Counted from the stretch's first letter, positions 6,842-29,631 are shown. The stretch is DNA of 64,000 bases from an uncultured Chitinophaga sp. (GCA_964549315.1 CAZJUY010000007.1:37567-101566), one strand, 5' to 3'. Notes: generated by a model from the sequence alone, not told the origin. A program made the numbers and translations.

Positions 6842-6849
6842 TATCTTTG
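6842..6849 (+). promoter_or_regulatory. -7 box TATCTTTG upstream of tilS
   Basis: Matches TAnnTTTG; 3 nt before ATG 6853. Confidence 0.55.
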
Positions 6850-6852
6850 TTT

Positions 6853-8184
6853 ATGCTTGAGTCATTTTTAAAATATATAAAAGAACAGAAACTGATTGAT
6901 CCCTCTGACAAAATTTTGTTGGCTGTTAGTGGAGGCGTTGATTCTGTTGTTTTGTGCAAACTACTCCATCAGGCAAAAATAAAATTTGCAATTGCTCATT
7001 GCAATTTTACTTTGAGAGGAGAAGAAAGCGATGAGGATGAATTATTTGTTGAAGGGTTAGCAGAACAATACAATGTTGCATTTCATTCAATTTCATTCGA
7101 TACGAATAGTTTTGCAAAAAAAAATAAATTATCTGTTCAAGTTGCAGCTCGTGAATTACGTTATAAGTGGTTTGATGAAATAAAAACTCAATTTAATTTT
7201 ACTTTAATTGCAACGGCTCATCATCAAGACGATTCCATCGAAACATTTTTTATTAACCTATTAAGAGGCTCAGGAATTAGAGGTTTGCATGGTATTTTAC
7301 CAAAACAAGGCGATATTATTCGACCGCTGTTGTTTGTGAATAAAGTAGAAATTGAAACATTTGCAAAAAAAAATAAACTTAAATTCAGACGAGATAGTAG
7401 CAATAATACGGATAAGTATTTACGAAATAAAATCCGTCATAAGCTAATTCCGTTGTTAAACACAATTAACCCAAGTGCAAACAAAAATATTGCTGATACA
7501 ATTGAAAACTTGAGAGAAGTAGAAGCTATTTATTTAAAGTCAATTGAAAAAAAGAAATTAAAGATTGTAGAAGAGAAAAATGGTTTAGTAAAAATTAGTA
7601 TTAAAGAACTTGAGAAGCTAAAACCCCTTTCTGCGTATTTGTTTGAATACCTTTATCCTCTTGGGTTTAATTCAAAAATGATTGATGATATTTTAGAATC
7701 ACTAAACTCAGAATCAGGTAAACAATTTTTTTCTGGAACTCATCGACTTATAAAGGATAGAAATTATTTAATCATTAGCACTAATGAAAAAATAATTGAT
7801 TCAAAAAATATAAATATTATCGTAAGTCAGAAAGAAATAAAAGTAGGCTCTAATAAGATTGTTTTTAAAAAAATGCTGCATTCAAAAAAAGTCGATTTAA
7901 AAGTATCTAAAGATATTGCTCAGATTGATTTTGAAAAACTGAAGTTTCCGCTTCAATTGAGAAAGTGGGAGCATGGAGATACTTTCCATCCAATCGGAAT
8001 GAAAGGTAAAAAGAAGTTAAGTGATTTTTTTATTGATCAAAAATTTAGTTTAATTGAGAAGGAAAACACAATGGTATTAATATCAGACAATAAAATAGTT
8101 TGGATTGTGGGACATAGAATAGATGATAGATTTAAAATCACTGACAAAACAAAACAAATATATTTTGCCAATTTGCTCAAGTAG
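6853..8184 (+). CDS. tilS: tRNA(Ile)-lysidine synthetase
   Basis: PP-loop AVSGGVDS, AARELRY, TAHHQDD, RPLL, D.SN...Y.RN.IR, C-terminal TilS_C (GMKGKKKLSDFFID). ATG 6853 preferred over GTG 6829. Confidence 0.95.
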   Translation: MLESFLKYIKEQKLIDPSDKILLAVSGGVDSVVLCKLLHQAKIKFAIAHCNFTLRGEESDEDELFVEGLAEQYNVAFHSISFDTNSFAKKNKLSVQVAARELRYKWFDEIKTQFNFTLIATAHHQDDSIETFFINLLRGSGIRGLHGILPKQGDIIRPLLFVNKVEIETFAKKNKLKFRRDSSNNTDKYLRNKIRHKLIPLLNTINPSANKNIADTIENLREVEAIYLKSIEKKKLKIVEEKNGLVKISIKELEKLKPLSAYLFEYLYPLGFNSKMIDDILESLNSESGKQFFSGTHRLIKDRNYLIISTNEKIIDSKNINIIVSQKEIKVGSNKIVFKKMLHSKKVDLKVSKDIAQIDFEKLKFPLQLRKWEHGDTFHPIGMKGKKKLSDFFIDQKFSLIEKENTMVLISDNKIVWIVGHRIDDRFKITDKTKQIYFANLLK

Positions 8185-8220
8185 ATTAACTTTGTAGATA
8201 TTAGAAATTCAAAGGATTTA

Positions 8221-8751
8221 ATGCAGAACAACTTACTTTTTGAAGAAAAACAATATTTAGGCTATAATAAATGGTCGATACTTTGGCGTACCGTTTTGGC
8301 TTTGTTCTGTTTTACTCTTTATTATTGGAGCGAAAATCCAAAGGCGGTTGATGTTGCAGTTATTTCAATCCCCAATTCACCCGTTGATGAAGATTCTGGA
8401 CAGCTGTTTTTTTTAATGGGTATTATTTTAATGCTACTTTCTTTAATCTTGATTTTTGTGTTGCATTTACACACAAAAGTAGATGGCAATAATCTGATAG
8501 TTGATGGCTTATGGACATCTCGAAAAGTAAAAATCGACTTAACGAATATAGTTGAAGTAAAAAAGGTTAAGTACAGTAAGTATTTACTTAATCGTCCTGT
8601 CTATAATCTTCATTTCAAAAATCGTATTCGTTTTTTTACCCAAGGAAATGATGCTGTAGAACTTACAGATAAGGAAGGGTTAAAATACAGAATAGGCACT
8701 CAAAAACAGGAAGATTTATATCAAATCCTTTCAGCAGCCATTTCAAAATAA
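8221..8751 (+). CDS. Membrane protein with two TM helices and a bacterial PH-like C-terminal domain (DUF6141-like)
   Basis: Two hydrophobic segments, then L.TKVD...L.V and G..AVEL....G.KY.IGTQK.E.L pattern; family call from memory. Confidence 0.5.
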   Translation: MQNNLLFEEKQYLGYNKWSILWRTVLALFCFTLYYWSENPKAVDVAVISIPNSPVDEDSGQLFFLMGIILMLLSLILIFVLHLHTKVDGNNLIVDGLWTSRKVKIDLTNIVEVKKVKYSKYLLNRPVYNLHFKNRIRFFTQGNDAVELTDKEGLKYRIGTQKQEDLYQILSAAISK

Positions 8752-8779
8752 AGGAATTTCAAAAGAATTCGATTTTACT

Positions 8780-8808
8780 GTAACGATTCCTTATCTCCAA
8801 ACGTACAA
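8780..8808 (+). promoter_or_regulatory. Putative ECF sigma promoter (GTAAC-N17-CGTACAA)
   Basis: AAC/CGT bipartite motif at canonical ECF spacing; AAACGTACAA recurs at 18191-18200 with the same spacing. Confidence 0.5.
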
Positions 8809-8854
8809 GAACTTGCTTTTGTTTTTTTAATACTCACCACTTAAATTATTTACC

Positions 8855-9154
8855 ATGACTAATGCTACTACAAACACGATGAAGCCGGTAAAAATTGAAA
8901 AGGAAAAAATCGCAGGTTTAACCTTTCCTGATACCGAAGTTTTGACATCCTCAGATGCAAAAAAAATAAGAATGGCTGGTTTGGATCGAGCCATGAAACT
9001 TGGTAATATTGAACACAATAAAATAAAGATTTTGTTTGAAGACAATGAAGGTTTAAAGCAGGTAGAAACTACCGTTTGGGCGGTTACAGATAATCGAATA
9101 ATTTTGAAGCAAGGAGTAACTATACCTATCAATAGGATTCATGAGGTGGTTTAA
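8855..9154 (+). CDS. Conserved hypothetical small protein (99 aa)
   Basis: Clean ORF with its own promoter-like motif and a strong terminator; natural composition; beta-rich C-terminal half. Confidence 0.8.
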   Translation: MTNATTNTMKPVKIEKEKIAGLTFPDTEVLTSSDAKKIRMAGLDRAMKLGNIEHNKIKILFEDNEGLKQVETTVWAVTDNRIILKQGVTIPINRIHEVV

Positions 9155-9186: not shown

Positions 9187-9219
9187 AAAAACAACCCTGA
9201 TTATTCAGGGTTGTTTTTT
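9187..9219. terminator. Intrinsic terminator hairpin
   Basis: AAAAACAACCCTGA-ttat-TCAGGGTTGTTTTT, followed by a T-rich run. Confidence 0.9.
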
Positions 9220-9265
9220 ATTTTTACGAGAGATTAAAACATAATATTCATAACTCCTATATTAT

Positions 9266-11368
9266 ATGAAATACGTAGTAAAATTTTGTCTTATAATTTT
9301 TAGTTCAATTGTATTGTTTAATAATGCTTTGGCTCAAGACAACCCAGTTAAATGGAAATTGAGTAGCAAAAAAATAAGTGATTGCGAATATGAATTAGTA
9401 TTCACTGGGACAATTGAAGAACATTGGCATGTTTATTCTCTTTTCCTAAAAGGAGATGATGGTCCAATGCCTGCAAATATTACTGTTGATAAAAGTAATG
9501 ATTACGAAATTCTCGGTAAACCAACAGAAACTAAGCCAATCAAAGCTTTTGATAAAGTATTTGAAATGGATGTAGCATACCATGAAAAAGTTGTAACATT
9601 CAAACAAAAGATAAAATTAAAAACAAATAAAGAGGTAGTTGTTAAAGGGAAATACGAGTACCAAGCCTGTACCGAAGAAAAATGCATTTTCCCGCCTGCT
9701 ACACCTTTTGAATTTAAACTGTCTGGCACCGAAGCTTGCATGGCTGCTAATAAGTCGCCTGAAGTTAAAGTGGAGACAAATTCTAATATAACAAATATAG
9801 ATTCTTCTATTTCAAACTCAGACTCAGCTATTCTTAAAAATACACCTATAAAAGAGACACAAATCTCAGAATCAAATTCAAAGCAAGATGATGAATCATC
9901 AATTGAAGGAAAAGTTTGGTGGGTAATTTTTTTAACGGGCTTTGCTTGGGGCTTTGCGGCTTTATTCACTCCTTGTGTGTTCCCGTTAATTCCAATGAAC
10001 GTTAGCTTTTTTCTTAAGCGCAGCCAAAATAAGGCAAAAGGAAAATTGAATGCTATTTTATATGCATTATCTATCATCATTATATTCGTTTCATTAGGGC
10101 TTGGTATTTCAGCTATTTGGGGCGGTGGGGCTTTGCACAGTTTTTCTACAAGTGCTGGTTTTAATATTGTGATTTTTCTTATGCTATTGATTTTTGGAGC
10201 ATCTTTTTTGGGTGCTTTTGAAATAGTTTTGCCATCTAGTTTTGTAAATAAAATAGATAAACAAAGCGATAGAGGTGGTTATGTAGGTATTTTCTTTATG
10301 GCATTGGCGCTCGTTGTAATTTCATTTTCATGTACTGGTCCAATGATTGGAAATGCTTTAGTTGCGGCATCTACATCTGGAAATACTTCTGGGGCTTTTT
10401 GGGCAATGTTTGGTTTTTCTGCTGGTTTAGCTTTGCCATTTGGTTTGTTTGCTTTTTTTCCTTCTATGCTTAATTCAATGCCTAAAAGTGGTGGTTGGCT
10501 AAATACAGTTAAGGTTGTTCTTGGGTTTTTAGAATTAGCCCTAGCGTTAAAATTTGCTTCCAATGTTGATTTAGTTTATCAATTAGGAATTTTAACCAGA
10601 GAGGTGTTTATCACATTATGGGTTGTAATTTTTGCTTTGATGACAATTTATTTATTAGGAGGATTTAAAACAGCTCATGATAGTGATGTAAAGCACTTGT
10701 CTGTAACTCGCATATTTTTTATTATATTTTCATTTTCGGTTACAGTATATTTAGTTCCAGGATTATGGGGTGCTCCTTTGAAATTGTTTAGCGGTGTTTT
10801 ACCTCCTGCCGAATATTCAGAATCCCCAAAAGGCTTTGGGGGAGGAGGGACTGAGTCTCATTCTACATCTAAGCCTTTAGATGCTGAATTTGGAAAATAT
10901 ATGGAAGTAAATAAACATGGTGTTCCATATTTTAAAAATGATTATGTACATGCTTTAGCATACGCAAAAAAAACAGGAAAACCTTTAATGGTTGATTTTA
11001 CTGGTCATGCTTGTGCGAATTGCAGAAAAACAGAAGATTTTATTTGGCCAGATGCTGGTGTTTCTAAAATATTAACGGATGATGTAGTTTTAGTTTCACT
11101 TTATGTTGATGATAAGAGAGAATTAGATGCTAAAGACTTTATGAAAGTATTTTGGTATGGTCAGGAAAGAGAAATTACAACCATAGGCGATAAGTTTAAA
11201 TATATGGAAGAAACATTATACAAACAAAGCACACAACCTTTATACGTTCTGTTGGACCATAATGAACAAACATTGATTGCACCTAGAGGTTATAAATCGG
11301 GAATCCTAGAATATATTGAATGGTTAAATAATGGAATAAAAGAATTTAAAAATCGTTCAGGTAAATAA
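9266..11368 (+). CDS. dsbD: Thiol:disulfide interchange protein DsbD family (DsbC-like N-terminal domain, TM domain, thioredoxin domain)
   Basis: Signal peptide; YQAC....C.PP; TM domain with TPCVFP and SCTGP cysteines; thioredoxin DFTGHACANC. Confidence 0.92.
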   Translation: MKYVVKFCLIIFSSIVLFNNALAQDNPVKWKLSSKKISDCEYELVFTGTIEEHWHVYSLFLKGDDGPMPANITVDKSNDYEILGKPTETKPIKAFDKVFEMDVAYHEKVVTFKQKIKLKTNKEVVVKGKYEYQACTEEKCIFPPATPFEFKLSGTEACMAANKSPEVKVETNSNITNIDSSISNSDSAILKNTPIKETQISESNSKQDDESSIEGKVWWVIFLTGFAWGFAALFTPCVFPLIPMNVSFFLKRSQNKAKGKLNAILYALSIIIIFVSLGLGISAIWGGGALHSFSTSAGFNIVIFLMLLIFGASFLGAFEIVLPSSFVNKIDKQSDRGGYVGIFFMALALVVISFSCTGPMIGNALVAASTSGNTSGAFWAMFGFSAGLALPFGLFAFFPSMLNSMPKSGGWLNTVKVVLGFLELALALKFASNVDLVYQLGILTREVFITLWVVIFALMTIYLLGGFKTAHDSDVKHLSVTRIFFIIFSFSVTVYLVPGLWGAPLKLFSGVLPPAEYSESPKGFGGGGTESHSTSKPLDAEFGKYMEVNKHGVPYFKNDYVHALAYAKKTGKPLMVDFTGHACANCRKTEDFIWPDAGVSKILTDDVVLVSLYVDDKRELDAKDFMKVFWYGQEREITTIGDKFKYMEETLYKQSTQPLYVLLDHNEQTLIAPRGYKSGILEYIEWLNNGIKEFKNRSGK

Positions 11369-12945: not shown

Positions 12946-14637
12946 TTAATTCTCTATGACCAAATTAGTTGTTTCCTGTTTCTCTATTCTGTTAAGATAT
13001 AAGGCTTTTGCTTTATTTACTCCATCGTACTGTAAAATTAAATTTGATTTATTTTTTTCTATTCTCAATTCTTTCTCAAAAATTTCGAAGTCAAAATCCA
13101 ATGGTAAAATTATAAATCTGAATTTATGATGGTTTAGTTTATTTTGTTCGATGATTGAAGTTTTTTCTTCTCTGCTTATTTCTTCTAAAAATAATGTTTG
13201 CGGCTTCACTTTGTGATGTAGGTAGTAATCAACAGCAATAAGTTGTTTGAGGGTTTTGTCTTCGGAGTAGTTTTGTTCAACAAAATCAGTAATTATATTA
13301 AAAATATCTGTGAGCGAATATTTGTGATAATCGCTTTTGATGCCAAAAAATATTCCAAGTTCTAATAAAAAATCAAAAATGCTATAATTGTTTGTTACAT
13401 ACTTTAGTGTGTTTATAGTTTTTTTGCCGTTCCAATAAATTTCTAAAGCATGTTCTAGCTGAACAATTTTGTTCAACTGTTCTTTTGATAAATAATTACT
13501 TTCAATTATTTGGTAAGGAGGTATGGGGTCAAATACATAGCCGTGTTGCTCATATTTATCACGAACAGGAGTGCCTTTTAAAAATTTTAAAAAGCCTAAT
13601 TGAAGTTCAGGTGCAAATAATTTGAATACTTCTTCTATGCTGTACTTAATGTCATCCCATTCGTCTAAAGGCAATCCAACAATCAAATCCAAATGCATTT
13701 CAATCCTTTGATCGAGCTGCTGAATGATGTTTTTTGTTTTATCAAAATTTTGTTTGCGACTTACCTGCAAATTTGCTTTTTGATTTACGGTTTGTATTCC
13801 AATTTCAAATCGAAACAAACCTTTAGGCACATGTTCGTTTATGAATGTAATAATATCAGGGTGAACAATGTCAGCCGTAATTTCAAACTGAAATACATTT
13901 TCGGGACGATGGTGTTCTAAAATGAATTTAAAAATATCTATTGTAAAATCTTTTTTAATATTGAATGTTCTATCTAAAAATTTGATAGTTCGTCCGTGTT
14001 GCATTAGGTATAACAACTGTGATTTTATTGTATCATTTGGAAGATAACGAACTTTATTATCTAAACTCGCCAAACAAAACTCACATTTGTAAGGGCAGCC
14101 TCTGGATGTTTCAATATAACAAACCTTATTGTTTAGTTCTTCTGGAGTATCATATATGTATGGATTTACATCTTTGAAATTTTGTAAATCAAACATTGGA
14201 GCAGCAGGATTTTCAATTATCTCATCTCCTTTTTTCCAAATTAAATTTGGAACCTTTTCTACTGATGGAAAATTATTTAAAAACTCTTTAAATGCAGTTT
14301 CGCCTTCACCACTCACAATATAATCAACATCTGATAGCGTAATAATATTTTTCCAATCGTAACTTACCTCTGGACCGCCCAGCATTATTTTACAATTAGG
14401 ATTAAGTTTTTTTATTTTTTTTATTACTTCTAGTGTTGGTGTAATGTTCCATATATAACAGCTAAAAGCAATTACATCATAATCTTTACAATAATCAGAA
14501 ATACCATCTTTATCTTCTTTGATTGTAAATTCCTTGAAAGCAATGTTTTTATAATCTTTATTCAGTTCATACAATAGGCGTACAGCCAAATTTATATGAA
14601 TGTATTTTGCATTTAAGGTGGTGAGTAAAACTTGCAT
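12946..14637 (-). CDS. B12-binding-domain radical SAM protein (DUF4080-type C-terminus)
   Basis: N-terminal cobalamin-binding-like domain (FSCYIWN, LGGPEVS, GEGE); CxxxCxxC (RGCPYKCEFC); FLDRTFN, FEIGIQT, HLDLIVGLP. Confidence 0.88.
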   Translation of the reverse strand: MQVLLTTLNAKYIHINLAVRLLYELNKDYKNIAFKEFTIKEDKDGISDYCKDYDVIAFSCYIWNITPTLEVIKKIKKLNPNCKIMLGGPEVSYDWKNIITLSDVDYIVSGEGETAFKEFLNNFPSVEKVPNLIWKKGDEIIENPAAPMFDLQNFKDVNPYIYDTPEELNNKVCYIETSRGCPYKCEFCLASLDNKVRYLPNDTIKSQLLYLMQHGRTIKFLDRTFNIKKDFTIDIFKFILEHHRPENVFQFEITADIVHPDIITFINEHVPKGLFRFEIGIQTVNQKANLQVSRKQNFDKTKNIIQQLDQRIEMHLDLIVGLPLDEWDDIKYSIEEVFKLFAPELQLGFLKFLKGTPVRDKYEQHGYVFDPIPPYQIIESNYLSKEQLNKIVQLEHALEIYWNGKKTINTLKYVTNNYSIFDFLLELGIFFGIKSDYHKYSLTDIFNIITDFVEQNYSEDKTLKQLIAVDYYLHHKVKPQTLFLEEISREEKTSIIEQNKLNHHKFRFIILPLDFDFEIFEKELRIEKNKSNLILQYDGVNKAKALYLNRIEKQETTNLVIEN

Positions 14638-14806: not shown

Positions 14807-17800
14807 ATGAAACAAAAATTATTATTCATTTTCATTGCATTCTTTTCATTAAATGCATTGGCGCAGTTTCCTGAGAATACTTTTCAAAGTGTAAATAATA
14901 AATACTATTGGAAGAATAGAAAACCATTTGAGGGTTATTGGCAACAAGATGTTCATTATAAAATCAATGCAACATTAGATGATAAAACAAATATCATTGA
15001 TGGTAAAATTGAGTTGACATATTATAATAATTCTCCGGACGAATTGCCGTTTGTGTATTTTCACTTGTATAGCAATGCGCAAGCGAAAGACTCCTATTTA
15101 GCAGATTTGTATAAAAACAACAATATAAAACTAAAGTTTGGTAAATATCAAGAGCAAGGATTGGGAACAAATGTTTCTAAAATTTCTTCAAATGGAGTTG
15201 ATTTAAAAACAGAACAAGACAATACAGTATTAAAAGTATTTCTTTCAACTCCATTAAAATCTGGCGAAAGTATTACTTTTTCTATCGAATTTAAAACGTA
15301 TTACGATAACGGTACAATTCGTAATCGTATGAAACTGTTTAATTCATTTGGTTACAAACATTATGATGTGGTGCATTGGTATCCTCGTATTTCTGTGTAT
15401 GATAGAAAACAAGGTTGGGATACCGACCAGCACATGGACCATGAATTTTATGGTGATTTTGGAACGTATGACGTAGCGTTTTCATTACCTAATCATTATA
15501 TTTTAGATGCAACAGGAGTTTTAATTAATCAAAATGATGTTATGCCTGCTGATTTACGTGCAAAATTAGATATTAAGAATTTTAAAAATAAACCTTGGAA
15601 CGAAAAACCTTCTGTAATTATTGAACCCAATGGAACTAAAAAAACCTGGATGTTTCATGCTGAAAATGTTCATGATTTTGCACTTACTGCTGATCCAACT
15701 TATAGAATAGGTGAAGTAGAGTGGAATGGAATAAAATGTATTTCGCTATGCCAAGAGCCACATGCAGCACATTGGCAAAATGCTGCTGAATATGCAGCAA
15801 AAGTTATTAAAGTAAATTCAGAAGATTTTGGAATGTATGGTTATCCCAAAATGATTGTTGCCGATGCACAAGATGGCATGGAATATCCAATGCTCACACT
15901 TGACGGTGGTTGGGATCCTGATTATCGTGATTTGTTAGCTCATGAAATTTCTCACAATTGGTTTTTTGGAATGGTTGGTTCTAATGAGACTTATCGTGCT
16001 GCTTTGGATGAAGGATTCACACAATTTTTAACTGCTTGGACGTATGAACGCATAGATGGAAAGCAACGCATCCGTTATAAAAACAAATCAAAGTATGTAG
16101 AAAAATTTACAGAACCAGATTTTATTCATAATAGTGAAGTATATAATGGTTATATGGGGGATGCTGCAAGAGGTGGTGAAGCTAATTTAAATGTTCATTC
16201 AGATATGTACGGAGGAGCTATTCGTCATGGTGGTGGATACAGACAAGTTTATATGAAAACATCTACCATGTTGTATAATCTTCAATATACTTTGGGTGAT
16301 TCTTTGTTTTTAGCAGCTATGCAAAATTATTTTAATCAGTGGAAGTTCGCTCATCCTTATATCGAAGATTTTAGAAATTCAATTATTCAGTACACGCATG
16401 TTGATTTAAACTGGTTTTTTGACGAGTGGATTGAAAGTACCAAAACAATTGATTATGGTGTTAAGAAAGTGAAAAAAGGAAAAGGTGATGATGAATATCA
16501 AATCACATTCAAACGCAAAGGAATGCAAATGCCACTTGATTTTTCTGTTATTGCAAAGAATGATAGTATTTACAATTTTCATATTCCTAATACTTGGTTT
16601 GTAAAAGAAACAAAAGCAACTGTACTCCCAAGATGGATTGGTTGGGATAAAGTTCAACCAGAATACACTGCTATTGTTACTATTCCAAGTGGTGTTTACG
16701 ATGTTGTGATTGACCCAAGCACTCGATTAGCTGATGTAAATATGTTGGATAACAATAAAAAATTCCCATTAAAGTATCGTTTTGATTCTAAAATTTATAA
16801 TGTGAGTGATTGGACCAGATATGAGCTGTATGCACGACCAGATATTTGGTACAATGGTTATGATGGAATTAAAGTAGGTGTTCATATGAATGGTAATTAT
16901 ATGATGTACAAACATATTTTTGATTTAAATGTGTGGTTTAATTCCGGTTTGGGTCAAAATTATTTAGATTCATTAACAGAAAAAAATAAATACGATAATA
17001 TTAGTTTTAGAATAAATTACAGAACTTCTACAGATAAATTTATGAAAGGTTCGACATTTAATTTTTCGGCAAAAGCTTTAGATGGACTAAATGCATATAC
17101 AGTTGGGTTTGATAGAAAAGATATCAAGGGAAATAACAGAGTATATATGTATTTTAAATCAATGTATCGTAAAGGATTAAATGATTTAACTTATTTATTA
17201 TTACCAAACGAATGGCAAGTAAACAAATTAAATAATACACTCAATATCGGTATTGAGCATAGTTATAATTATAATGCAGGAACTGGTAATATTAATTTAG
17301 GATTACGTTCATCAGCAATAATGAGCGATTACGATTATCAAACAATTAATTTAAATGTGATTAATAGAACTCGATTAGGGAAGCTAGTATTAAACACAAG
17401 AGTTGTGGGGCAATATGGAACAGGAAAAGTTTGGGCAGATGAATCATCATTATTTTTAGCTGGAGCCAATCCAGAAGAAATGATGGATAATAAATATACT
17501 CGTTCAACGGGATTTTTTGACCCTACTTGGGCTAAATTTGGAGCAACCACAAACAACTTCCAATATGGAGGAGGTTTGAATTTAAGAGGATACGCAGGTT
17601 ATTTTGCTCCCCAATTGCAAAGTGATGCAAGTGTAGTTTATACTTATAAAGGACAAACAGGTGCAGCTGTAAATGCTGAATTAGAATTTAGTGGCTTAAT
17701 AAGACAAAAAAAATCTAACTGGCTAAACAGAACATTTAATTTAAAAACATACATTTTTGGAGATGCTGGAATTATAAATTATAGCAAACCAACAGATGTT

Positions 17801-17995
17801 ATTCTTAAAATGAGCGATTTTAGAGCAGATGCAGGATTAGGTCTCGCTCTTACTATAAAAAAGTTTGGAGTCTTACAAACTGTTGATCCGCTTACCATTC
17901 GTTTTGACATGCCTTTCTTTCTGAATAAAATTCCAGCAACAGATAAAGACTTTGTTCAATACAGATTTGTAATAGCTGTTAGCAGGGCTTTCTAA
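14807..17995 (+). CDS. M1 family zinc aminopeptidase with probable C-terminal outer-membrane beta-barrel
   Basis: Signal peptide; GMEYP, HEISH-x18-E (LDEG); C-terminal ~400 aa with alternating amphipathic strands, ending ...VIAVSRAF. Confidence 0.85.
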   Translation: MKQKLLFIFIAFFSLNALAQFPENTFQSVNNKYYWKNRKPFEGYWQQDVHYKINATLDDKTNIIDGKIELTYYNNSPDELPFVYFHLYSNAQAKDSYLADLYKNNNIKLKFGKYQEQGLGTNVSKISSNGVDLKTEQDNTVLKVFLSTPLKSGESITFSIEFKTYYDNGTIRNRMKLFNSFGYKHYDVVHWYPRISVYDRKQGWDTDQHMDHEFYGDFGTYDVAFSLPNHYILDATGVLINQNDVMPADLRAKLDIKNFKNKPWNEKPSVIIEPNGTKKTWMFHAENVHDFALTADPTYRIGEVEWNGIKCISLCQEPHAAHWQNAAEYAAKVIKVNSEDFGMYGYPKMIVADAQDGMEYPMLTLDGGWDPDYRDLLAHEISHNWFFGMVGSNETYRAALDEGFTQFLTAWTYERIDGKQRIRYKNKSKYVEKFTEPDFIHNSEVYNGYMGDAARGGEANLNVHSDMYGGAIRHGGGYRQVYMKTSTMLYNLQYTLGDSLFLAAMQNYFNQWKFAHPYIEDFRNSIIQYTHVDLNWFFDEWIESTKTIDYGVKKVKKGKGDDEYQITFKRKGMQMPLDFSVIAKNDSIYNFHIPNTWFVKETKATVLPRWIGWDKVQPEYTAIVTIPSGVYDVVIDPSTRLADVNMLDNNKKFPLKYRFDSKIYNVSDWTRYELYARPDIWYNGYDGIKVGVHMNGNYMMYKHIFDLNVWFNSGLGQNYLDSLTEKNKYDNISFRINYRTSTDKFMKGSTFNFSAKALDGLNAYTVGFDRKDIKGNNRVYMYFKSMYRKGLNDLTYLLLPNEWQVNKLNNTLNIGIEHSYNYNAGTGNINLGLRSSAIMSDYDYQTINLNVINRTRLGKLVLNTRVVGQYGTGKVWADESSLFLAGANPEEMMDNKYTRSTGFFDPTWAKFGATTNNFQYGGGLNLRGYAGYFAPQLQSDASVVYTYKGQTGAAVNAELEFSGLIRQKKSNWLNRTFNLKTYIFGDAGIINYSKPTDVILKMSDFRADAGLGLALTIKKFGVLQTVDPLTIRFDMPFFLNKIPATDKDFVQYRFVIAVSRAF

Positions 17996-18954: not shown

Positions 18955-18966
18955 TTAAATCATCTT

Positions 18967-19009
18967 AAATAAAAAAGGCCTTGTGAATTTTACAAGGCCT
19001 TTTTTATTT
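18967..19009. terminator. Bidirectional intrinsic terminator between convergent genes
   Basis: AAATAAAAAAGGCCTTGT-gaatttt-ACAAGGCCTTTTTTATTT. Confidence 0.9.
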
Positions 19010-22000
19010 AAGATGATTTTTTACCAATTCGGCTAAAAATATTTTCTAATAAGTTGATGAACTTTTTAAGAATATCAAAATATAAGGTAATAGCCAAGAA
19101 TAAGCTCATAACCCATATTACAGATATATTGAACCAATAGGTGTCGTAATACTTGCCCAAGAATTTTTTGCGAGGTGCAAAGAAATGAGCTCGTCCTAAA
19201 TTAGACTCAACAGGATCTAAATAAACAGGGTCGATTTTTTGAATATATTCCCCATCTAAATCTAATATACGGTAAGGAGTAGTACGATTAGTAACTAAGT
19301 CTTTTAAACTTTCGTTTTCATAATCATCTTTACTTTTTAAATAAGCAACTCTTGATAAACTGTCTTTATTTAATTTTCCAATTTCAGTGTCTTTTAATTG
19401 TGTAGCACGTTTAAAATTATTTAAATAAACAGTTTTAAGCGTAGTGAAAAAATCACGAATTTGGTTAGCAACAGTAGGGCCGAAGCTACCAATGTTTAAA
19501 TTGTCTAAACCTCCGCATCTCAAATTTTCATTGCCAGGCAACATCAACTCTTTTTGGATTTCGCTTTTTATCATTAGCAATGCATCAATAACATCTTGCT
19601 TGTTTTCAGGTTTTTGATAGTTGCTTTCGCAGAAATCAATTTTTTTATTAAGTTCTGTTAGCCAATAATCTTTTTTGTATGTAGAAATACTCAACGCTTT
19701 GTCGTACTTGTAAAGTTTTTTGTTGAAAGCATTGTCTTTAAATTGTTTGATAGCAAGTGCTTCAAAAGCCCAGCGAGATGTCATTACTTCACCGCTAAAT
19801 GGAACCACATTTTGTGAAGTAATACTTGGGTTTAATTTGTCGAATTTTACAATTACACCACTTAATAATAATTGAGGAATAATTAAAAATGGAATTAAAA
19901 TATAAATAGTTACAGCAGAGTTAAAGCTAGCTGAAATATTTAAGCCCAACATATTAGCAAAGCAAGACGTAGTAAACAACACTAACCAATAAGAAAGTGT
20001 CATTCCTCCAATTTCTAAAACGTAGTTACCAACTAAAACAAACATAATCGTTTGTATAGCTGAAAGAACAAACATGATTACAATTTTGCTCCATAAATAA
20101 CTGCCTTTACTTAAGTTCAAGAATGATTCACGTTTTTGAATTTTTCTATCTCTGATAATTTCTTCGGCACTTACTGTTAAACCAATAAATAAAGCAACTA
20201 CAACAGCCATAAAAAGATAGGCAGGCATATTTTCGTTTTCTCTGAAAATGTATCCAACTTTGTTTGATAAATCAGTATTGTAAAATTTTATTAAGTAAGC
20301 AAGTATAAAAGCTAAAACAGGTGCTTCTAATAAATTGATTGATAAGTATTGTTTATTAGTTAATTTAGATAATACATCACGAGTAATAAATACTTTAAAT
20401 TGACTAAATTTGTTTGGGCGCTTAAATGTACTTTCTGGAATTTCAGTAAAATCAGTTACATCCTCAACTCTTTTTTCTAATTTCTCTCTGTAGTGTTTGT
20501 TCCATTCACTTGGAGACATTTTTCTGTTCAATGTCAAATTTCCATACTCATCTAATACTTTTGATTCAATAATATTAAATACTTGTTCTGGATTTACATT
20601 ACCACACTCAATACATTCGCTTTCGTTGCTATTTACATGGTTAACAACAGTTTTAAAGTATATAACTGAATCAACAGGGTTGCCATAATATATAGGATAA
20701 CCGCCCACATCTAAAATCATTAGTTTGTCAAACATTTTAAATATGTCTGACGATGGCTGATGGATTACAACAAAAACAAGTTTGCCTTTTAATGCAAGCT
20801 CTTTAAGTAAGTCCATAATATTTTCTGAGTCGCGAGAAGATAAACCAGAAGTAGGTTCATCTACAAATAGTACAGATGGTTCACGAATTAATTCCAACGC
20901 AATGTTTAATCGTTTACGTTGACCACCAGAAATTGTTTTTTCTAAAGGGCTACCAACTTTTAAATCACGTGTTTCAATTAAACCAATGTCGGTAAGTACT
21001 TCCACCACCATTTCAGAAATTTCAGCATCAGACTTGTTCCCAAAACATAGTTTAGCATTGTAAAATAAATTTTGAAAAACAGAAAGTTCTTCAATCAATA
21101 AATCATCTTGCGAAACGTGACCAATAACACCTTCAATTTGATTTTTTTCGGTGTGAATATTTATTCCATTTATTTTAACCGAACCAGCACTTGGTATTTC
21201 ATTTCCGTTTAATACGTTTAGTAATGTAGATTTACCCGCACCAGAACCTCCCATAATTCCAATTAATTTACCCGACTCTTCTCTGAAGTTGATATCACGT
21301 AAACCTAATTTTCCTCCTTTAAATTTGTACTCTAAATTTTGTACTACGAATGATACTTTTGCTTTAGAAGTGTCGCTCATAAATGAGCTTAAAATATCGC
21401 TATAATAAACTGGTTTTACTTTTGAACTTCTTAATGATGAACCAGGAGTTAGGATATAAACTTTTCCTTGAAATAAAATTTGTCCGTTAAGCAATAAATC
21501 ACTTTTTCCAAAATATACCAAAGCGTACATATTAACACTTGGTATCCAAAGCACTCGTGCTTGTCCAGTTACGCCTTCGGCATAGATATGTTTTGTTTCA
21601 ACTAATTTATGGTCGGTACGGTTGTCAATTATTAAAACTTTTGATGATTCAGGAATTTCGTTTTCTGATGCGCGAACAAATTTCATACAGCTTTTAAATT
21701 CTGTATCTTCAATATTAAATGTTTCTGCCACAGTAGTAACAAACTCTAACTCTTGTTCTGCAATTTCTTCATTAGAATTAATAAATTCAATCAAACGTAA
21801 TAACACAACCACTTTTTGAACCTGCGTAAGTTCCTCATTTATTTGAGTACAAATTCTTAAAACCTTAACAGAGTTTAATGAAGTACGTTTTGCTGTTCCA
21901 TCTTTCTTTTTGGTTACTTGATGATGCGCTTCTAAAAACTCATCAAATATTTTTAAATATTGGTCAACCAACTCTTGGTTAAGCTGTTGTTTCAAAAAGG

Positions 22001-22094
22001 ATTGTACAATTAATCGCCCGTTATCATTTATGCCATCAACTCTTGCAATAATTGCAAACATTTGCATCAGGGCTTTTAATATGCGTTCACTCAT
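19008..22094 (-). CDS. ABCG/White-type fused ABC transporter (NBD-TMD) with N-terminal TerB-like and FHA-like domains
   Basis: Walker A GGSGAGKST; signature ISGGQRKRLNIALEL; Walker B VLFVDEPTSGL; H-loop VIHQPS; six TM segments with SRWAFEAL before a ~200-aa loop. TerB/FHA calls rest on degenerate motifs. Confidence 0.85.
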   Translation of the reverse strand: MSERILKALMQMFAIIARVDGINDNGRLIVQSFLKQQLNQELVDQYLKIFDEFLEAHHQVTKKKDGTAKRTSLNSVKVLRICTQINEELTQVQKVVVLLRLIEFINSNEEIAEQELEFVTTVAETFNIEDTEFKSCMKFVRASENEIPESSKVLIIDNRTDHKLVETKHIYAEGVTGQARVLWIPSVNMYALVYFGKSDLLLNGQILFQGKVYILTPGSSLRSSKVKPVYYSDILSSFMSDTSKAKVSFVVQNLEYKFKGGKLGLRDINFREESGKLIGIMGGSGAGKSTLLNVLNGNEIPSAGSVKINGINIHTEKNQIEGVIGHVSQDDLLIEELSVFQNLFYNAKLCFGNKSDAEISEMVVEVLTDIGLIETRDLKVGSPLEKTISGGQRKRLNIALELIREPSVLFVDEPTSGLSSRDSENIMDLLKELALKGKLVFVVIHQPSSDIFKMFDKLMILDVGGYPIYYGNPVDSVIYFKTVVNHVNSNESECIECGNVNPEQVFNIIESKVLDEYGNLTLNRKMSPSEWNKHYREKLEKRVEDVTDFTEIPESTFKRPNKFSQFKVFITRDVLSKLTNKQYLSINLLEAPVLAFILAYLIKFYNTDLSNKVGYIFRENENMPAYLFMAVVVALFIGLTVSAEEIIRDRKIQKRESFLNLSKGSYLWSKIVIMFVLSAIQTIMFVLVGNYVLEIGGMTLSYWLVLFTTSCFANMLGLNISASFNSAVTIYILIPFLIIPQLLLSGVIVKFDKLNPSITSQNVVPFSGEVMTSRWAFEALAIKQFKDNAFNKKLYKYDKALSISTYKKDYWLTELNKKIDFCESNYQKPENKQDVIDALLMIKSEIQKELMLPGNENLRCGGLDNLNIGSFGPTVANQIRDFFTTLKTVYLNNFKRATQLKDTEIGKLNKDSLSRVAYLKSKDDYENESLKDLVTNRTTPYRILDLDGEYIQKIDPVYLDPVESNLGRAHFFAPRKKFLGKYYDTYWFNISVIWVMSLFLAITLYFDILKKFINLLENIFSRIGKKSS

Positions 22095-22124
22095 GGTTTA
22101 AGGTAGTTGTTGTTTTAAAAAATA

Positions 22125-22155
22125 AAAGCATTAATACCGCAGTAATTAATGCTTT
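22125..22155 (-). terminator. Intra-operon hairpin with U-tract between the 144-aa gene and the ABC gene
   Basis: Minus strand AAAGCATTAAT(T)AC-TGCG-GTATTAATGCTTT followed by TATTTTTT. Confidence 0.65.
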
Positions 22156-22175
22156 CAAAAATTTTATTTTAAAAA

Positions 22176-22610
22176 TTATTTTTGTTGTTTAAAGCCAATT
22201 AAAATTACAGCACGTCCAGAACCTGCAGAGCTACTTGCAAGTTTAGCTTCAATAATACAATCTAGTGTGTTCGTAATTTTAAAATCCCAGTATGGAGCAT
22301 TTTTATATTCACTGTTTGTAAACAATAAATTGTGTTCAGTGTCATAAACAGAAAAAATTAAATTACCATCGCTTAAGCCACTGCAAGCAGCAATACGATA
22401 AACAGTTCCACTGTAAAGTGTAGTGTGGAATTCAGCAGTTTCATCAGCATTCATTAACAAAGCACGGTATTGTTGCCCGTCAGATATAAATTGAGCTTCT
22501 AAGTGTTTTGCACAAGAATTAGCAACTGTATCAGATATTTGAGCTGATGCAGTATTAACCAAAATTACTGTTGCTAAGGTAAATGCTAATTGTAAAAATA
22601 TTTTTTTCAT
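22176..22610 (-). CDS. Small exported beta-rich hypothetical protein
   Basis: Sec signal peptide ending ASA/Q; three cysteines in the mature part; beta-sandwich-like pattern (AEFHTTLYSGTVYRIAAC). Confidence 0.8.
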   Translation of the reverse strand: MKKIFLQLAFTLATVILVNTASAQISDTVANSCAKHLEAQFISDGQQYRALLMNADETAEFHTTLYSGTVYRIAACSGLSDGNLIFSVYDTEHNLLFTNSEYKNAPYWDFKITNTLDCIIEAKLASSSAGSGRAVILIGFKQQK

Positions 22611-22660: not shown

Positions 22661-23557
22661 TTATCCTACAATTTGTGATCTGATTGATTTCACTTTTTGA
22701 GTAATCAATTCAATTTGTTCAGGAGTAATGTTTACTTCTGATTTACTATTGATAGTTGTTGTTTTTTTATCAGCATCAGTAGTTGGTTTTTCAAAAGTGT
22801 ATTTAAACTCAACACCATCAAATACTGTAGATAAATCATTTAGGTTGTCAACAAATTCCATATACTCAGGTTGGCTGTAGTATTGTGTTAATAGTTTAAT
22901 TAAACTTTGTAAAGATGATTTTTGCTCAGCAATTCTGCGTTTTACAGCTTCGTTTGGTTTTGCTTTGTAAACATTTGTAGCAAAGTATAAACTCTCAATC
23001 CAGCCTCCTGCAAGTACTAAACCACTTACATCACTACGGTCGTTAGTTTTTAAATATGCATCACTTGAGCGGTATGCAATACCTACAAGAACAAGCATAG
23101 AATCTTTATTCCCTAAGTTTTTTTGAAAACGTTCAATTGTAGATAAATCAAATGCTCCAGAAACTCCTAATTCGTCACTCAATTTTTTAGCAGCGTTTAA
23201 GAAACCAATTGCATCTTGATTTTGGTCATAAATAGTAACATAACCTAAGTCAGCACCATAAATACCAAGATTTAAAGCTTTTGCAAAGTTGGTAGAATAT
23301 TGTGACGATTTATTTGAAGGATTTAATATGTCTTTGCTATAAGAAGCTCCACTGTTTTTAATCAAAAACGCAGTTTGGATAGGTGATGGAATACTGAAAA
23401 TTTCACCACTAATGTTTAAAATAGTGCTTTGAGTACTATCAACTGGAGGTAGTGAATCATCATTATTTCCGTTATCTGTGCCACAACCTGCTGCAACTAA
23501 AGCAGCAAAAGCAAATAAAGTATAATTTCTTTTAAGTGTAAAACGTTTAAATGTCAT
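22661..23557 (-). CDS. Hypothetical all-alpha lipoprotein
   Basis: Lipobox VAAG/C (Cys25) followed by acidic GTDNGNNDDS; conserved-looking motifs PSP...A, ALNLGIYGADLGY, GGWIESLY. Confidence 0.82.
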   Translation of the reverse strand: MTFKRFTLKRNYTLFAFAALVAAGCGTDNGNNDDSLPPVDSTQSTILNISGEIFSIPSPIQTAFLIKNSGASYSKDILNPSNKSSQYSTNFAKALNLGIYGADLGYVTIYDQNQDAIGFLNAAKKLSDELGVSGAFDLSTIERFQKNLGNKDSMLVLVGIAYRSSDAYLKTNDRSDVSGLVLAGGWIESLYFATNVYKAKPNEAVKRRIAEQKSSLQSLIKLLTQYYSQPEYMEFVDNLNDLSTVFDGVEFKYTFEKPTTDADKKTTTINSKSEVNITPEQIELITQKVKSIRSQIVG

Positions 23558-23595: not shown

Positions 23596-23625
23596 CAAAA
23601 ATAATACTTTATCTAATAAATCAAA
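23596..23625 (-). promoter_or_regulatory. Bacteroidota housekeeping promoter (TTTG-N18-TATTTTTG) for the lipoprotein/ABC operon
   Basis: Plus-strand CAAAAATA at 23596-23603 and CAAA at 23622-23625 match the -7 and -33 elements. Confidence 0.6.
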
Positions 23626-26937: not shown

Positions 26938-29631
26938 TTATTTTTTAAGAAGCATTTTTTCTTTTTTATTTACACCAAACTCTAAAATACGATCAATAAA
27001 ATCGTATGGTTTGTAGCCATTGATGGCTGTTTGATGAAAGATACAAGTAGCGGGTGTCATACCTGGCAATGAATTTACTTCAATAAAAATTATTTCCACT
27101 TTTTCATCGTTGTTTATTCTTACAAAAGCATCAATACGGCAATATCCTTGAACATTTAGAGCTTTTGCTGCATTGCCCAATGTTTGTTTTACGATATCTG
27201 AAATTTTTTGTCGTTCTGCAGGGTCGGCAGAATAGCGAGCAGGTGTGATGTTTTGTCCTTGTCCTGCAAGGAATTTTTCTTCTAAGGATAAAACTTCTCC
27301 TTCGCTTAAGGCTTCAGATGCCTCAAATACTTCGTAAACAATATCTCCATTTTTATCATATTTTGTAAGCATTCCACCTGTAATTTCTAAAAAATGTTTT
27401 GCCTCTTTTCTGCTAATTAATTCTTCAACAAGTATTACATTTTTTTGTGGAAATTCTTCTTTATCTTTTATATGTAACAAATCTGCTGCTAATTGATTTA
27501 GCATTTCTTGTTTGCGGAAAATAAGTGTAGCAAAAGCATTAAACTCTTCGGGTGTTTTTATTTTTTTTACTGCAGAAGAACATCCATCGTCAACAGGCTT
27601 TGCTATAAAAGGATATTTTATTTTTTCTTTGATAGTTTTTAAAACGGAATCTTTATCAGAACTCCAATCTTTTTCGGCAACAAGTAAATGTTCTGCAACT
27701 AAAAAACCATTTTGTTTTAAAATTTCGTTTGTTCTGTATTTATCAATTGTAATTTGTGAACTATCTACACCACTTCCGTTATAAGGCAACCCTATTTTTT
27801 CTAAATTTGCTTGAACAGCACCGTCTTCGCCTGGCCTGCCATGCAGTGCAATAAATACAGCATCCACCGTTTTTGCTAATTCATCATAAGTAAACCGTTT
27901 TGGTTTTGCTAAATTATCTGCACTCACATATTTAGTTGTAATGGATGATGCTTCATCAATAATCTGTTTTACTAAATCATGAATTTTATAGTTTTCAATT
28001 TTTTCTTTTATATCATCTGCATTGTCCTTCAACAAAATATTGATTGGAATTTGATACATGATGTGTTCATCTGCATTGCCCGTTAAAAAAATGGGAATAG
28101 GTTCATATTTAGTAGAAGAAGCTAATTTTTCGTAAATATTTCTTCCGCTTTCAACAGAGATATGTCTTTCAGATGAGTAACCGCCAAGGATTACAGCAAC
28201 TTTGATTTTCTTAGTAGTTGATGATTTGTCCTGCTTTATTGATTCATCCAATTGATTTAATAATTTTTTAAATACAACTGCATATGAGTTAGCTTTTATT
28301 CGTTGTGCCAAAGAAGTACGAATAATATAGGTCAAAAATTGAGATGGATTCAATCCTATTTCTGCAGCTTGATGAAAGAAAAAAGAAGAAGGCATCATCC
28401 CAGAAGTAGTATTAGGATCATTCAAAAATATTTTTCCATCTGTAGAAAGGAAGCCATCAATACGAGCATACACATCAAAATTTAAAGCATAAAATAATCG
28501 TTCACATTCTTTTCTTATTGCTTGAATTTGCTCGTTAGGCAAATCAATTGGTGTAATTTTTCTTGATAAACCAGGCAAGTACTTTGAACGATAATCAAAC
28601 AATTCTTTTCCTTTTCTTATTTCAGTTGGAGGCAGAGCGATTGCTTTCCCATTTTCATCTTGAGCAACAATACATGAAAATTCTTTGCCATCAATAAATC
28701 CTTCAATTAACACAGTTGTTTCACCATCTATTGCTTCTAAAACGGCTCCTTCTTTTTCTGTTGTAAATAGTTTATCTAAAAAAGAAATTAAATCGGCAGG
28801 ATGATTTATGATTGTTGAATTGATTTTTACTGGTAACGAAATTCCTTCACGAATATCTGCAAGCACACGAACAAAATTATTTTTTTCTTCTGCTGATTTG
28901 TTTTTCCATTCTGTTGCATCTACCCATTTTGTGAAAAAAGCTTTCTCCACAGCTTCCATAAAAGAGAAATTATCATCTTTTGAAAGAATAGTTACACCAA
29001 TAGATGAACCTTGGTTAGCTGGTTTTATAACTAATGGAAATCCAATTTCTTTTTTTACTTTTTCAAAAACACCTTTGCAATTCCCAGTGATATAATCGTT
29101 TTTATCAATTGTAATAAATTTCGGACTATTGAATCCTGCACTCACCATCATTCTTTTTTGAATGCTTTTATCAATACCAATTGCAGAAGGCAAAACACCA
29201 GAGCCTGAATATGGGATTCCTAAAAATTCAAACAGACCTTGAATCTTCCCGTCTTCACCAAATGGACCATGTAAACACAAAAAAGCAAAATCAAAATAAG
29301 TTCTTAAATCATCTGCATTGATTTTTTTTCCAATTTTATTTATCATTTCAAGTTGATCTGAAGCGTCAAATTCTCCAATTTGCTCAGCATACACTTGAAA
29401 ATCGCCTTGTTTATTTGGTATAAATTCTACTGGAGGATAAAAATCACGAACACTGCCTTTGTAAATAAATTCCCAATTGAGTAAAACAAAATTTCCAAAA
29501 CTATCTACAAAAACAGGTACAGCATCAAAAAGTGATTTGTTTAAATTGTCATAAACAGTTCTTCCGCCAGCAAATGATATTTCTCGCTCCTTTGAAAATC
29601 CACCGAAAATGATTCCTATTTTTATTTTCAT
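26938..29631 (-). CDS. ddl: Tandem two-domain D-alanine--D-alanine ligase family protein (897 aa)
   Basis: Two full Ddl motif sets: GGFSKEREIS / GGYSSERHIS, LHGPFGEDG / LHGRPGEDG, KPANQGSS / KPVDDGCSS, RIDGF / RIDAF, DPNTTSGM / EVNSLPGM. Confidence 0.88.
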   Translation of the reverse strand: MKIKIGIIFGGFSKEREISFAGGRTVYDNLNKSLFDAVPVFVDSFGNFVLLNWEFIYKGSVRDFYPPVEFIPNKQGDFQVYAEQIGEFDASDQLEMINKIGKKINADDLRTYFDFAFLCLHGPFGEDGKIQGLFEFLGIPYSGSGVLPSAIGIDKSIQKRMMVSAGFNSPKFITIDKNDYITGNCKGVFEKVKKEIGFPLVIKPANQGSSIGVTILSKDDNFSFMEAVEKAFFTKWVDATEWKNKSAEEKNNFVRVLADIREGISLPVKINSTIINHPADLISFLDKLFTTEKEGAVLEAIDGETTVLIEGFIDGKEFSCIVAQDENGKAIALPPTEIRKGKELFDYRSKYLPGLSRKITPIDLPNEQIQAIRKECERLFYALNFDVYARIDGFLSTDGKIFLNDPNTTSGMMPSSFFFHQAAEIGLNPSQFLTYIIRTSLAQRIKANSYAVVFKKLLNQLDESIKQDKSSTTKKIKVAVILGGYSSERHISVESGRNIYEKLASSTKYEPIPIFLTGNADEHIMYQIPINILLKDNADDIKEKIENYKIHDLVKQIIDEASSITTKYVSADNLAKPKRFTYDELAKTVDAVFIALHGRPGEDGAVQANLEKIGLPYNGSGVDSSQITIDKYRTNEILKQNGFLVAEHLLVAEKDWSSDKDSVLKTIKEKIKYPFIAKPVDDGCSSAVKKIKTPEEFNAFATLIFRKQEMLNQLAADLLHIKDKEEFPQKNVILVEELISRKEAKHFLEITGGMLTKYDKNGDIVYEVFEASEALSEGEVLSLEEKFLAGQGQNITPARYSADPAERQKISDIVKQTLGNAAKALNVQGYCRIDAFVRINNDEKVEIIFIEVNSLPGMTPATCIFHQTAINGYKPYDFIDRILEFGVNKKEKMLLKK

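Follow-up and report, generated by a model that had tools for sequence, protein, structure and literature searches.

How does an ATP-binding cassette (ABC) transporter with eukaryote-like ABCG motifs operate in a bacterium when it also carries a TerB-like domain, an FHA-like domain, a cysteine pair and a large insert in its membrane part? This question was raised by one gene of an uncultured Chitinophaga sp. (GCA_964549315.1 CAZJUY010000007.1:37567-101566). In the present study, we analyzed a stretch of 64,000 nucleotides (nt) with ~30% G+C, hereafter called the window, and all coordinates are counted from its first letter unless a related locus is named. The gene lies at 19008..22094 on the minus strand and consists of a single open reading frame (ORF) with an ATG start, which encodes 1028 amino acids (aa). 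The plus-strand reading of 19008-22094 was rejected, since its frame was full of stops, which placed the gene on the minus strand. The ORF did not arise by chance, because full-length relatives at 72-94% identity made up its best 120 matches. Taken together, the results pointed to a homodimeric half-size ABCG / ABC-2 (type V) envelope exporter of the inner membrane that carries a phosphorylation-independent cytoplasmic regulatory module. We consider this reading as a whole moderately probable; its architectural part is near-certain, and its partner and regulatory parts stand at perhaps an even chance. The order of the domains, including transmembrane (TM) helices 1-6, was as follows.

21672..22094, minus strand: TerB-like seven-helix domain (aa 1-141)
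21375..21647, minus strand: degenerate FHA-like beta domain (aa ~150-240)
20655..21347, minus strand: ABC ATPase domain with ABCG-type motifs (aa ~250-480)
20565..20621, minus strand: near-invariant C494-x-x-C497-G-N-V-N-P-E-x-[IV]-F-x-I-I-E, a CxxC pair with NPE..F...E (aa 492-510)
19824..20402, minus strand: TM helices 1-5, ABC-2 type (aa 565-757)
19140..19811, minus strand: re-entrant helix, then a predicted periplasmic helical stalk, in place of ABCG extracellular loop 3 (aa 762-985)
19008..19139, minus strand: TM6, basic C-terminal tail and stop codon (aa 986-1028)

All hallmarks of an ABC ATPase were present, including the Walker A motif GGSGAGKS (aa 282-289), the SGGQ signature as SGGQRKR (aa 389-395), the Walker B motif VLFVDE with the catalytic Glu (aa 408-413) and the H-loop in IHQPS (aa 444-448, with HQPS from residue 445). 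PF00005 matched aa 265-416 (E 2.3e-30, 106 bits against a cut-off of 25), and TIGR00955 (White/pigment permease) matched aa 254-800 with an E of 1.7e-73 and 248.3 bits against its curated cut-off of 736.35. The best PDB sequence matches were Cdr1, Pdr5, ABCG1, ABCG5/G8 and ABCG2 (E 1e-44 to 1e-30). These alignments spanned both the nucleotide-binding domain (NBD) and the transmembrane domain (TMD), and they covered query residues 256-755 for ABCG1 (7fdv), 277-750 for ABCG2 and 265-662 for ABCG5. The NBD was N-terminal to a six-helix ABC-2 TMD, as in ABCG / ABC-2 (type V) half-transporters. PF01061 (ABC2_membrane) matched aa 565-757 with an E of 4.8e-19, and hydropathy placed the TM segments at ~583-604, 625-645, 668-690, 697-718, 724-752 and 988-1010 (or 985-1010), which left a gap of ~225 polar or non-hydrophobic residues between TM5 and TM6.

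After the NBD, the protein carried the element that begins with C494-I-E-C497. Conservation, here and below, was counted over 51 diverse full-length relatives. Both C494 and C497 were present in 49 of them, followed by G498 (48), N499 (43), V500 (43), N501 (38), P502 (38), E503 (49), F506 (40), I508 (45) and E510 (44). By inspection, we infer that this element corresponds to the C-P-x-x-x-N-P-x-D-F-x-x-D stretch of ABCG proteins. In ABCG5/G8, the NPXDFXXD helices of both halves form a symmetric, permanent NBD-NBD contact (PMC8100176). Because the cysteine pair appears to adjoin the motif that forms this pivot, it may stabilize the NBD-NBD contact, or it may make the contact switchable through zinc or a disulfide.

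The gap between TM5 and TM6 was occupied by a helical domain. A re-entrant-helix-like segment, SRWAFEALAIKQF (aa 773-785), followed TM5, and the stalk came after it. An AlphaFold2 model of aa 762-990, built with 34 relatives, reached a mean predicted local distance difference test (pLDDT) of 94.9 and a predicted template modeling score (pTM) of 0.89. The model contained long helices at ~795-825, 829-850 and 873-908 (31, 22 and 36 residues), together with two shorter helices and two small hairpins, and from the helix lengths the stalk is estimated to project roughly 45-55 Å. The stalk should face the periplasm, because under ABCG topology it is placed where extracellular loop 3 is. Conserved residues were found at its membrane-proximal ends (P765, R774, W775, E778, N927, K976, T985 and N989), and the distal helices varied. 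A Foldseek search of the stalk domain against the PDB returned no match with an E below 0.6. Generic coiled coils (Smac, EmrA, EnvC and SMC arms; E>=0.65) were not taken as homologues. It was also observed that some relatives carry a CxxC inside the stalk itself (NLECVECVE, FKCENCITD and NLECKGCFE); the stalk cysteines of the window protein are separated instead (C822 and C860). Beyond TM6, the C-terminal tail KKFINLLENIFSRIGKKSS was basic, which is consistent with a cytoplasmic end.

The N-terminal part was first assigned by profile. PF05099 (TerB) matched aa 8-135 over profile positions 3-115 of 118. Its gathering cut-off of 24.4 bits was exceeded by the isolated aa 1-140 (26.9 bits) and by aa 1-250 (24.8 bits), and the full protein fell slightly short of it (22.3 bits). 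The same family was matched by 27 of 36 diverse relatives, with a best E of 1.3e-9. With an alignment of 36 sequences as input, AlphaFold2 modeled aa 1-250 at a mean pLDDT of 86.4 and a pTM of 0.83, and it placed helices at 3-16, 24-35, 40-62, 70-86, 91-106, 113-125 and 130-141. By Foldseek, these helices matched PG1108 of Porphyromonas gingivalis (2h5n), which is classified as TerB-like, over ~143-144 columns with a TM(target) of 0.53-0.58, a probability of 0.92-0.99 and an E of 0.05-0.14. The domain contained IARVDG (aa 15-21) and E..EQELEFV..VAETFNI (aa 110-128). The canonical TerB Asp-Gly positions were half conserved, with D20 in 24/51, G21 in 16/51 and D108 in 25/51 relatives. Of the other acidic positions, E103 (47/51) and E117 (E or D, 42/51) were well kept, and E115 was present in 28/51; these residues may or may not correspond to the metal positions of TerB. 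A PDB profile search with the N-terminal alignment gave staphostatin at an E of 0.05, which was taken as a chance match, and nothing meaningful besides.

Within aa ~150-240 of the same model, about six strands only were modeled, at 153-157, 168-171, 177-184, 189-196, 212-215 and 220-222, with a pLDDT of 85-97. FHA domains made up 46 of the 50 best Foldseek matches in the PDB, including CEP170, Rad53 FHA1, Mek1, KIF1A, EssC, DgcB, Chk2 and RNF8, with a TM(target) of 0.33-0.56 and E values of 0.013-0.3, none below 0.001. Furthermore, hhalign was used to compare the family alignment of aa 141-250 with six FHA sequences, each validated with Pfam (E 1e-12 to 1e-21). The comparison scored 23.6 (P 8.8e-4, probability 23%) over 40 columns of the C-terminal half only, and it paired LLLNG (aa 200-204, which includes N203) with the FHA 'NG' strand and the PGSSLR stretch of KVYILTPGSSL (aa 211-221) and the following residue with the FHA 'GD.I.iG' strand. 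Among the controls, 100 column shuffles scored 9.9±2.0 with a maximum of 14.6, and scores of 9-10 were obtained with the reversed alignment and with the TerB part. Neither Pfam FHA (PF00498) nor Yop-YscD_cpl (PF16697) matched the query (E<=10) or the 36 relatives (E<=0.1). The FHA positions that were kept included N203 (46/51), G204 (42/51) and G218 (49/51). G177 of the FHA G-R pair was found in 41/51 relatives, with an Arg after it in 4/51 only; S186 of S-x-x-H was found in 31/51, and there was no conserved His. Because of these fold and profile matches and these residue counts, we describe aa ~150-240 as FHA-like by fold and descent, without the phosphothreonine-binding set.

A sequence-only reading of this DNA had described the same anatomy, and each motif that it quoted was found at its stated residue. 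The TerB-like cap that it proposed was supported by the Pfam matches and the Foldseek fold match, and the FHA-like domain, which it had said to lack the GR and SxxH phosphothreonine residues, held at the fold and profile level and by the counts. It had suggested Foldseek searches for each domain, and the N-terminal module, as modeled, matched TerB-like and FHA-like folds. Its ABCG-like NBD-TMD was borne out by the TIGR00955 match and the PDB sequence matches, the CxxC pair was present and near-invariant (49/51 for each Cys), and the external insert in the TMD was located at the position of ABCG extracellular loop 3.

We then considered how widely the architecture occurs. With the exception of three truncated entries, the best 120 matches of the whole-protein search were full-length relatives of 1016-1033 aa, and they came from metagenome-assembled genomes (MAGs) of Bacteroidota. 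Their annotation was limited to 'ATP-binding cassette domain-containing protein' or 'ABC-type multidrug transport system ATPase subunit', and one JGI name of a close relative (P0012) adds 'uncharacterized tellurite resistance protein' to the ABC part. When the first 250 aa were searched against 1.84 billion cluster representatives (50%-identity library), 817 clusters were found at E<=1e-3 and 134 at E<=1e-30; the complete cluster proteins were of consistent length (~1000-1050 aa, or ~980-1110 aa at the widest), and the module was N-terminal in all of them. A scan of one genome per species, with a 6-sequence alignment as the query, found the N-terminal module encoded in >577 species genomes. 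The taxa among the best 80 of these included Bacteroidia, Flavobacteriales, Vicingus, Crocinitomix, Salibacteraceae and Parvicellaceae; nearly all were labeled Bacteroidota, the exceptions being one MAG bin labeled Akkermansia and one 'bacterium'. The closest genome was a Bacteroidia MAG (L001), with 92% identity over the module, and the distant members were found in Bacteroidales, Geofilum rhodophaeum (WP_088654299.1) and Marinifilaceae. The three extra elements were kept across 30-94% identity and hundreds of species. These results indicated that the family is real, well conserved, generically annotated and unstudied.

The TerB+FHA-like module was also found outside the fused protein. At a related locus (L023:5173-5904), a free-standing module of 243 aa lies directly upstream of a full-length ABC gene and is 53% identical to the fused module. 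The same arrangement was found in L081 and in one further contig, with the gene well inside the contig and the ABC gene ~90 bp later; in L081, the module occupies 796-1527 and the ABC gene starts at 1616, beginning with MSERILRALMQMFAIIARVDG. In L045, the module (6001-6765) and the ABC body (6841-9075) are separate ORFs, and this split may be genuine or an assembly error. Because free-standing 243-aa copies exist, the module appears to be an autonomous folding and functional unit, and the pairing of fused and free copies suggests module-module or module-NBD interactions in trans.

The transporter gene was accompanied by two genes of orphan families and by candidate regulatory elements. Neighborhood counts refer to the best 80 related loci or genomes.

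22176..22610, minus strand: gene of a 144-aa secreted protein, orphan family, with a signal peptide ...ASA/Q, directly upstream of the ABC gene
22661..23557, minus strand: gene of a 298-aa lipoprotein, orphan family, with lipobox AAG-C25, upstream of the 144-aa gene
22114..22157, minus strand: stable RNA hairpin with a U-run after it, in the gap that separates the 144-aa gene from the ABC gene (minimum free energy -14.2 kcal/mol)
18965..19011: bidirectional terminator-like hairpin with a perfect 20-pair stem and A-/T-run flanks, overlapping the ABC stop codon
L015:4875-5354, L016:5500-5979, L018:5499-5978 and 11 other loci: ~159-aa ORF in related loci

On the same strand upstream, the 144-aa gene was found in 66/80 genomes (38-81% identity) and the lipoprotein gene in 64/80. 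The order of lipoprotein, 144-aa and ABC gene was kept in 64-66/80 loci, down to ~40% identity, and C25 of the lipoprotein was invariant in 38 orthologues. All-against-all clustering of the ORFs in the 80 loci revealed these two partners as the only widely recurring neighbors; the next cluster covered 18 loci. Neither partner protein had a Pfam, NCBIfam or PDB family, whether searched as single sequences or as 38-member sets. ArlS_N (8/38, E>=0.016) and BspA_V (0.018) were scattered sub-threshold matches and were rejected. The linkage of the partner genes is lineage-specific. In 14/80 loci, an extra ~159-aa ORF without a Pfam match was found between the 144-aa gene and the ABC gene.

Co-transcription of the partner genes with the ABC gene is plausible from their arrangement. 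The hairpin at 22114..22157 had a z of -5.1 against 200 shuffles, and a hairpin of -12 kcal/mol or stronger was found in ~33/47 related intergenic regions; it may act as an attenuator or partial terminator that sets the expression ratio. The hairpin at 18965..19011 is shared by the 3' end of the ABC gene and a convergent 208-aa ORF. Bacteroidota promoters of the -33/-7 type have the consensus TTTG / TAnnTTTG. On the minus strand at 23596-23625, ~40 nt upstream of the lipoprotein ATG, we observed TTTG, 18 nt and TATTTTTG, which resembles this promoter. A sigma-70 promoter scan was set aside, with 18 sites against 23.9 in shuffles and a consensus that is unsuited to Bacteroidota.

No kinase, phosphatase, ter gene or metal-related gene was found nearby in the window, and no kinase domain was found in the two recurrent neighbor clusters of the 80 loci. 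At L018, the cassette was preceded by an LptB-like ABC ATPase, a 248-aa ORF of unknown function and a Kdo transferase, and followed by a thioredoxin gene (1098-3831 and 9200-9598). A link to lipopolysaccharide was rejected, with Kdo transferase or LptB-like neighbors in 7-8/80 loci only. Elsewhere in the window, a B12-binding radical SAM protein with DUF4080 and a 1062-aa M1-family peptidase (12946-14637 and 14807-17995) were found, neither of which is conserved beside the transporter. In an 897-aa ORF at 26938-29631 on the minus strand, the N-terminal domain of D-Ala-D-Ala ligase occurs twice, together with several C-terminal/ATP-grasp stretches, which suggests two Ddl-type units fused in tandem.

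In view of the wider family and locus, the sequence-only reading stood in part. The anatomy that it gave was accurate; it did not notice that the gene is on the minus strand, nor did it report the conserved genes upstream or the paralogues in which the module stands free. The domain set that it called unusual was confirmed, yet this set is the norm for a large Bacteroidota family, and the JGI annotation of a close relative already names the ABC and the tellurite-resistance parts.

In the mechanism that we propose, ATP binding and hydrolysis by the NBD dimer would drive a substrate, either hydrophobic or destined for the envelope, out through the ABC-2 TMD, by analogy with ABCG proteins. The periplasmic stalk would receive the substrate or dock periplasmic partners, and in the lineage of the window the candidate partners are the upstream lipoprotein and the 144-aa secreted protein. 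The TerB+FHA-like unit would regulate or localize the pump without phosphothreonine recognition. It probably acts by protein-protein or module-module contacts, because some genomes encode a separate 243-aa copy beside the transporter gene. A bolder version of this mechanism supposes an unrecognized Bacteroidota-specific envelope machine. An ABCG-type dimer with two three-helix stalks, the lipoprotein and the small secreted protein would together pass on an envelope lipid or surface component, as a conduit or hand-off station, and the cytoplasmic switch would consist of the TerB+FHA-like module, also in trans, and an inter-subunit four-cysteine site at the NBD pivot. We regard this version as unlikely.

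Several observations weigh against the exporter reading or parts of it. The partners are absent nearby in 13/80 close loci, and they are not adjacent to the transporter gene in the distant Bacteroidales members that were checked; coupling between stalk and partners may not be general, because the partners are non-adjacent in those loci. Co-transcription is no more than plausible, because the U-run hairpin separates the partners from the ABC gene. The FHA similarity is weak in absolute terms (Foldseek E >=0.013; hhalign 23% over 40 columns). The protein is not in the eukaryotic pigment-permease subfamily, because 248 bits are far under the TIGR00955 cut-off of 736. The placement of CxxC at the dimer pivot is a motif correspondence drawn by eye; the phmmer alignment to ABCG5 was ambiguous in the CxxC-NPE stretch, where the element N501-P-E503-x-[IV]-F506-x-I-I-E510 is spaced differently from NPxDFxxD. 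Finally, a full-text literature search for TerB, FHA and ABC transporter returned nothing relevant.

Other explanations were weighed on the same evidence. In the sequence-only reading, the TerB-like cap and the CxxC pair sense metal, redox state or membrane stress and thereby gate the ATPase. Members of the TerB family have been associated with tellurite and metal stress, and DjlA, through its TerB-like domain, with envelope signaling. The TerB assignment is real, and E103 (47/51) and E117 (E or D, 42/51) are kept; however, D20 (24/51), G21 (16/51) and D108 (25/51) are not kept to the same extent, and the conserved neighbors in the 80 loci include no ter genes, metal transporters, thioredoxin-type genes or stress regulators, the thioredoxin gene of L018 notwithstanding. 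The two cysteines, each present in 49/51 relatives, could build a zinc site of four cysteines or act as a disulfide switch, provided that they lie at the two-fold contact of the NBDs. Two cysteines do not by themselves make a metal site, and their apparent placement in an ABCG structural element fits a structural role equally; because the pair seems to fall within the element of the ABCG NBD dimer, such a role is at least as likely as sensing. We consider gating by sensing speculative and rather unlikely. Control of the Rv1747 kind, in which a Ser/Thr kinase would activate the transporter and the FHA-like domain would recognize phosphothreonine, is extremely improbable. Rv1747 of Mycobacterium tuberculosis is an FHA-FHA-NBD-TMD ABC exporter that is positively regulated by PknF (PMC3138270), and the window protein resembles it in having an FHA-type fold N-terminal to an ABCG-like NBD-TMD. 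Nevertheless, the FHA Arg is found in 4/51 relatives, the His is absent, the Ser is found in 31/51, and Pfam FHA is unmatched; moreover, no kinase or phosphatase gene lies nearby in the window, nor is one conserved nearby in the 80 loci. Canonical kinase regulation was rejected on these residue counts and on the absence of a kinase.

The stalk and the partner genes could also be read as parts of a mechanotransducer, in which the stalk, moved by ATP hydrolysis, acts on the lipoprotein or the 144-aa protein by activating, releasing or remodeling it, as in FtsEX-EnvC or LolCDE with lipoproteins. In its favor, the stalk is long, looks rigid and varies over its surface but not at its base, and a lipoprotein and a secreted protein are conserved beside the gene in most close genomes. 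The coiled-coil matches of the stalk include EnvC, of the FtsEX complex, and the adaptor EmrA, at non-significant E values of 0.8-1.6. In the known systems, however, the fold is that of FtsX/MacB, with four helices and a periplasmic domain that follows TM1 and precedes TM2, whereas the TMD in question is ABC2_membrane (PF01061), not FtsX, and its insert lies between TM5 and TM6. The six-helix ABC-2 fold translocates substrates in the studied cases, and distant members keep the stalk though the partners are not adjacent. We consider a purely mechanical role quite improbable. We assign similarly little probability to an ordinary multidrug or xenobiotic efflux pump in which the extra domains are accessory and have little mechanistic role. 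The source annotations read 'ABC-type multidrug transport system ATPase subunit', and drug pumps (Cdr1, Pdr5 and ABCG2) are among the nearest relatives of solved structure; the multidrug label is a generic COG name, though, and carries no evidence. The retention of all three extra elements at 30-94% identity in hundreds of species would be unexpected for dispensable decorations, and the same holds for the conserved partner genes.

The exporter with a phosphorylation-independent module, which remains our preferred reading, can be set beside several known systems. ABCG-type transporters have been studied almost only in eukaryotes, with Rv1747 as the one well-known bacterial relative that has a regulatory FHA module. 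The Bacteroidota family described here combines an ABCG core with a phospho-independent module, a near-invariant CxxC beside the putative pivot motif and a confidently predicted periplasmic helical domain without a solved counterpart, and in many lineages two orphan envelope proteins are linked to it. The family could serve as a tractable bacterial model for the control of an ABCG-type engine by cytoplasmic add-ons. It may also point the way to an undescribed route of envelope export in this phylum, where outer-membrane and surface-lipoprotein biogenesis are incompletely understood.

In its N-terminal part, the protein shares the helical fold and a near-whole profile match with the TerB family (PF05099; PG1108/2h5n and the TerB-like domain of DjlA). 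TerB proteins stand alone or are fused to a J-domain, whereas the domain here is fused to a transporter and keeps the characteristic acidic and Gly positions only in part. The FHA-like domain is similar to the N-terminal FHA domains of EssC from type VII secretion (5fwh, rank 12 among its Foldseek matches) and to the cytoplasmic domain of YscD, which are FHA-type beta sandwiches that a membrane ATPase or secretion machine carries on its cytoplasmic face. The FHA domains of EssC and YscD likewise lack the canonical phosphothreonine-binding residues. In contrast to the likeness in fold, a sequence relationship to them was not detectable, and both PF00498 and PF16697 were unmatched here.

The core of the protein is closest to the eukaryotic ABCG half-transporters (ABCG1, ABCG2 and ABCG5/G8) and to Cdr1/Pdr5, with which it shares the NBD before the TMD, the six-helix ABC-2 TMD, SGGQRKR and IHQPS. 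The likeness to ABCG/PDR proteins extends to the re-entrant helix ('SRWAFEALA') after TM5, the TM5-TM6 loop and, as far as the motifs can be matched by eye, a Cys plus NP-acidic-F element after the NBD. The window protein differs from them in being bacterial and in its N-terminal TerB+FHA-like module of ~245 aa. Extracellular loop 3 comprises a few tens of residues in ABCG2, whereas a helical stalk of ~200 aa replaces it here, and the window protein has CxxC-G-N-V-NPE..F...E where ABCG proteins have CP...NPxDFxxD. With Rv1747, the protein shares the plan of a bacterial ABCG-like half-transporter with one or more FHA-type domains N-terminal to the NBD as a cytoplasmic regulatory module. In Rv1747, both FHA domains are canonical and bind phosphothreonine, and the operon also encodes the cognate kinase; the window protein, in contrast, has a single degenerate FHA-like domain that lacks the Arg and His, no kinase neighbor, an extra TerB-like domain and a large periplasmic insert. 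What is new relative to these systems is the conserved gene order with two orphan exported proteins and the occurrence of a free-standing TerB+FHA-like module in some genomes.

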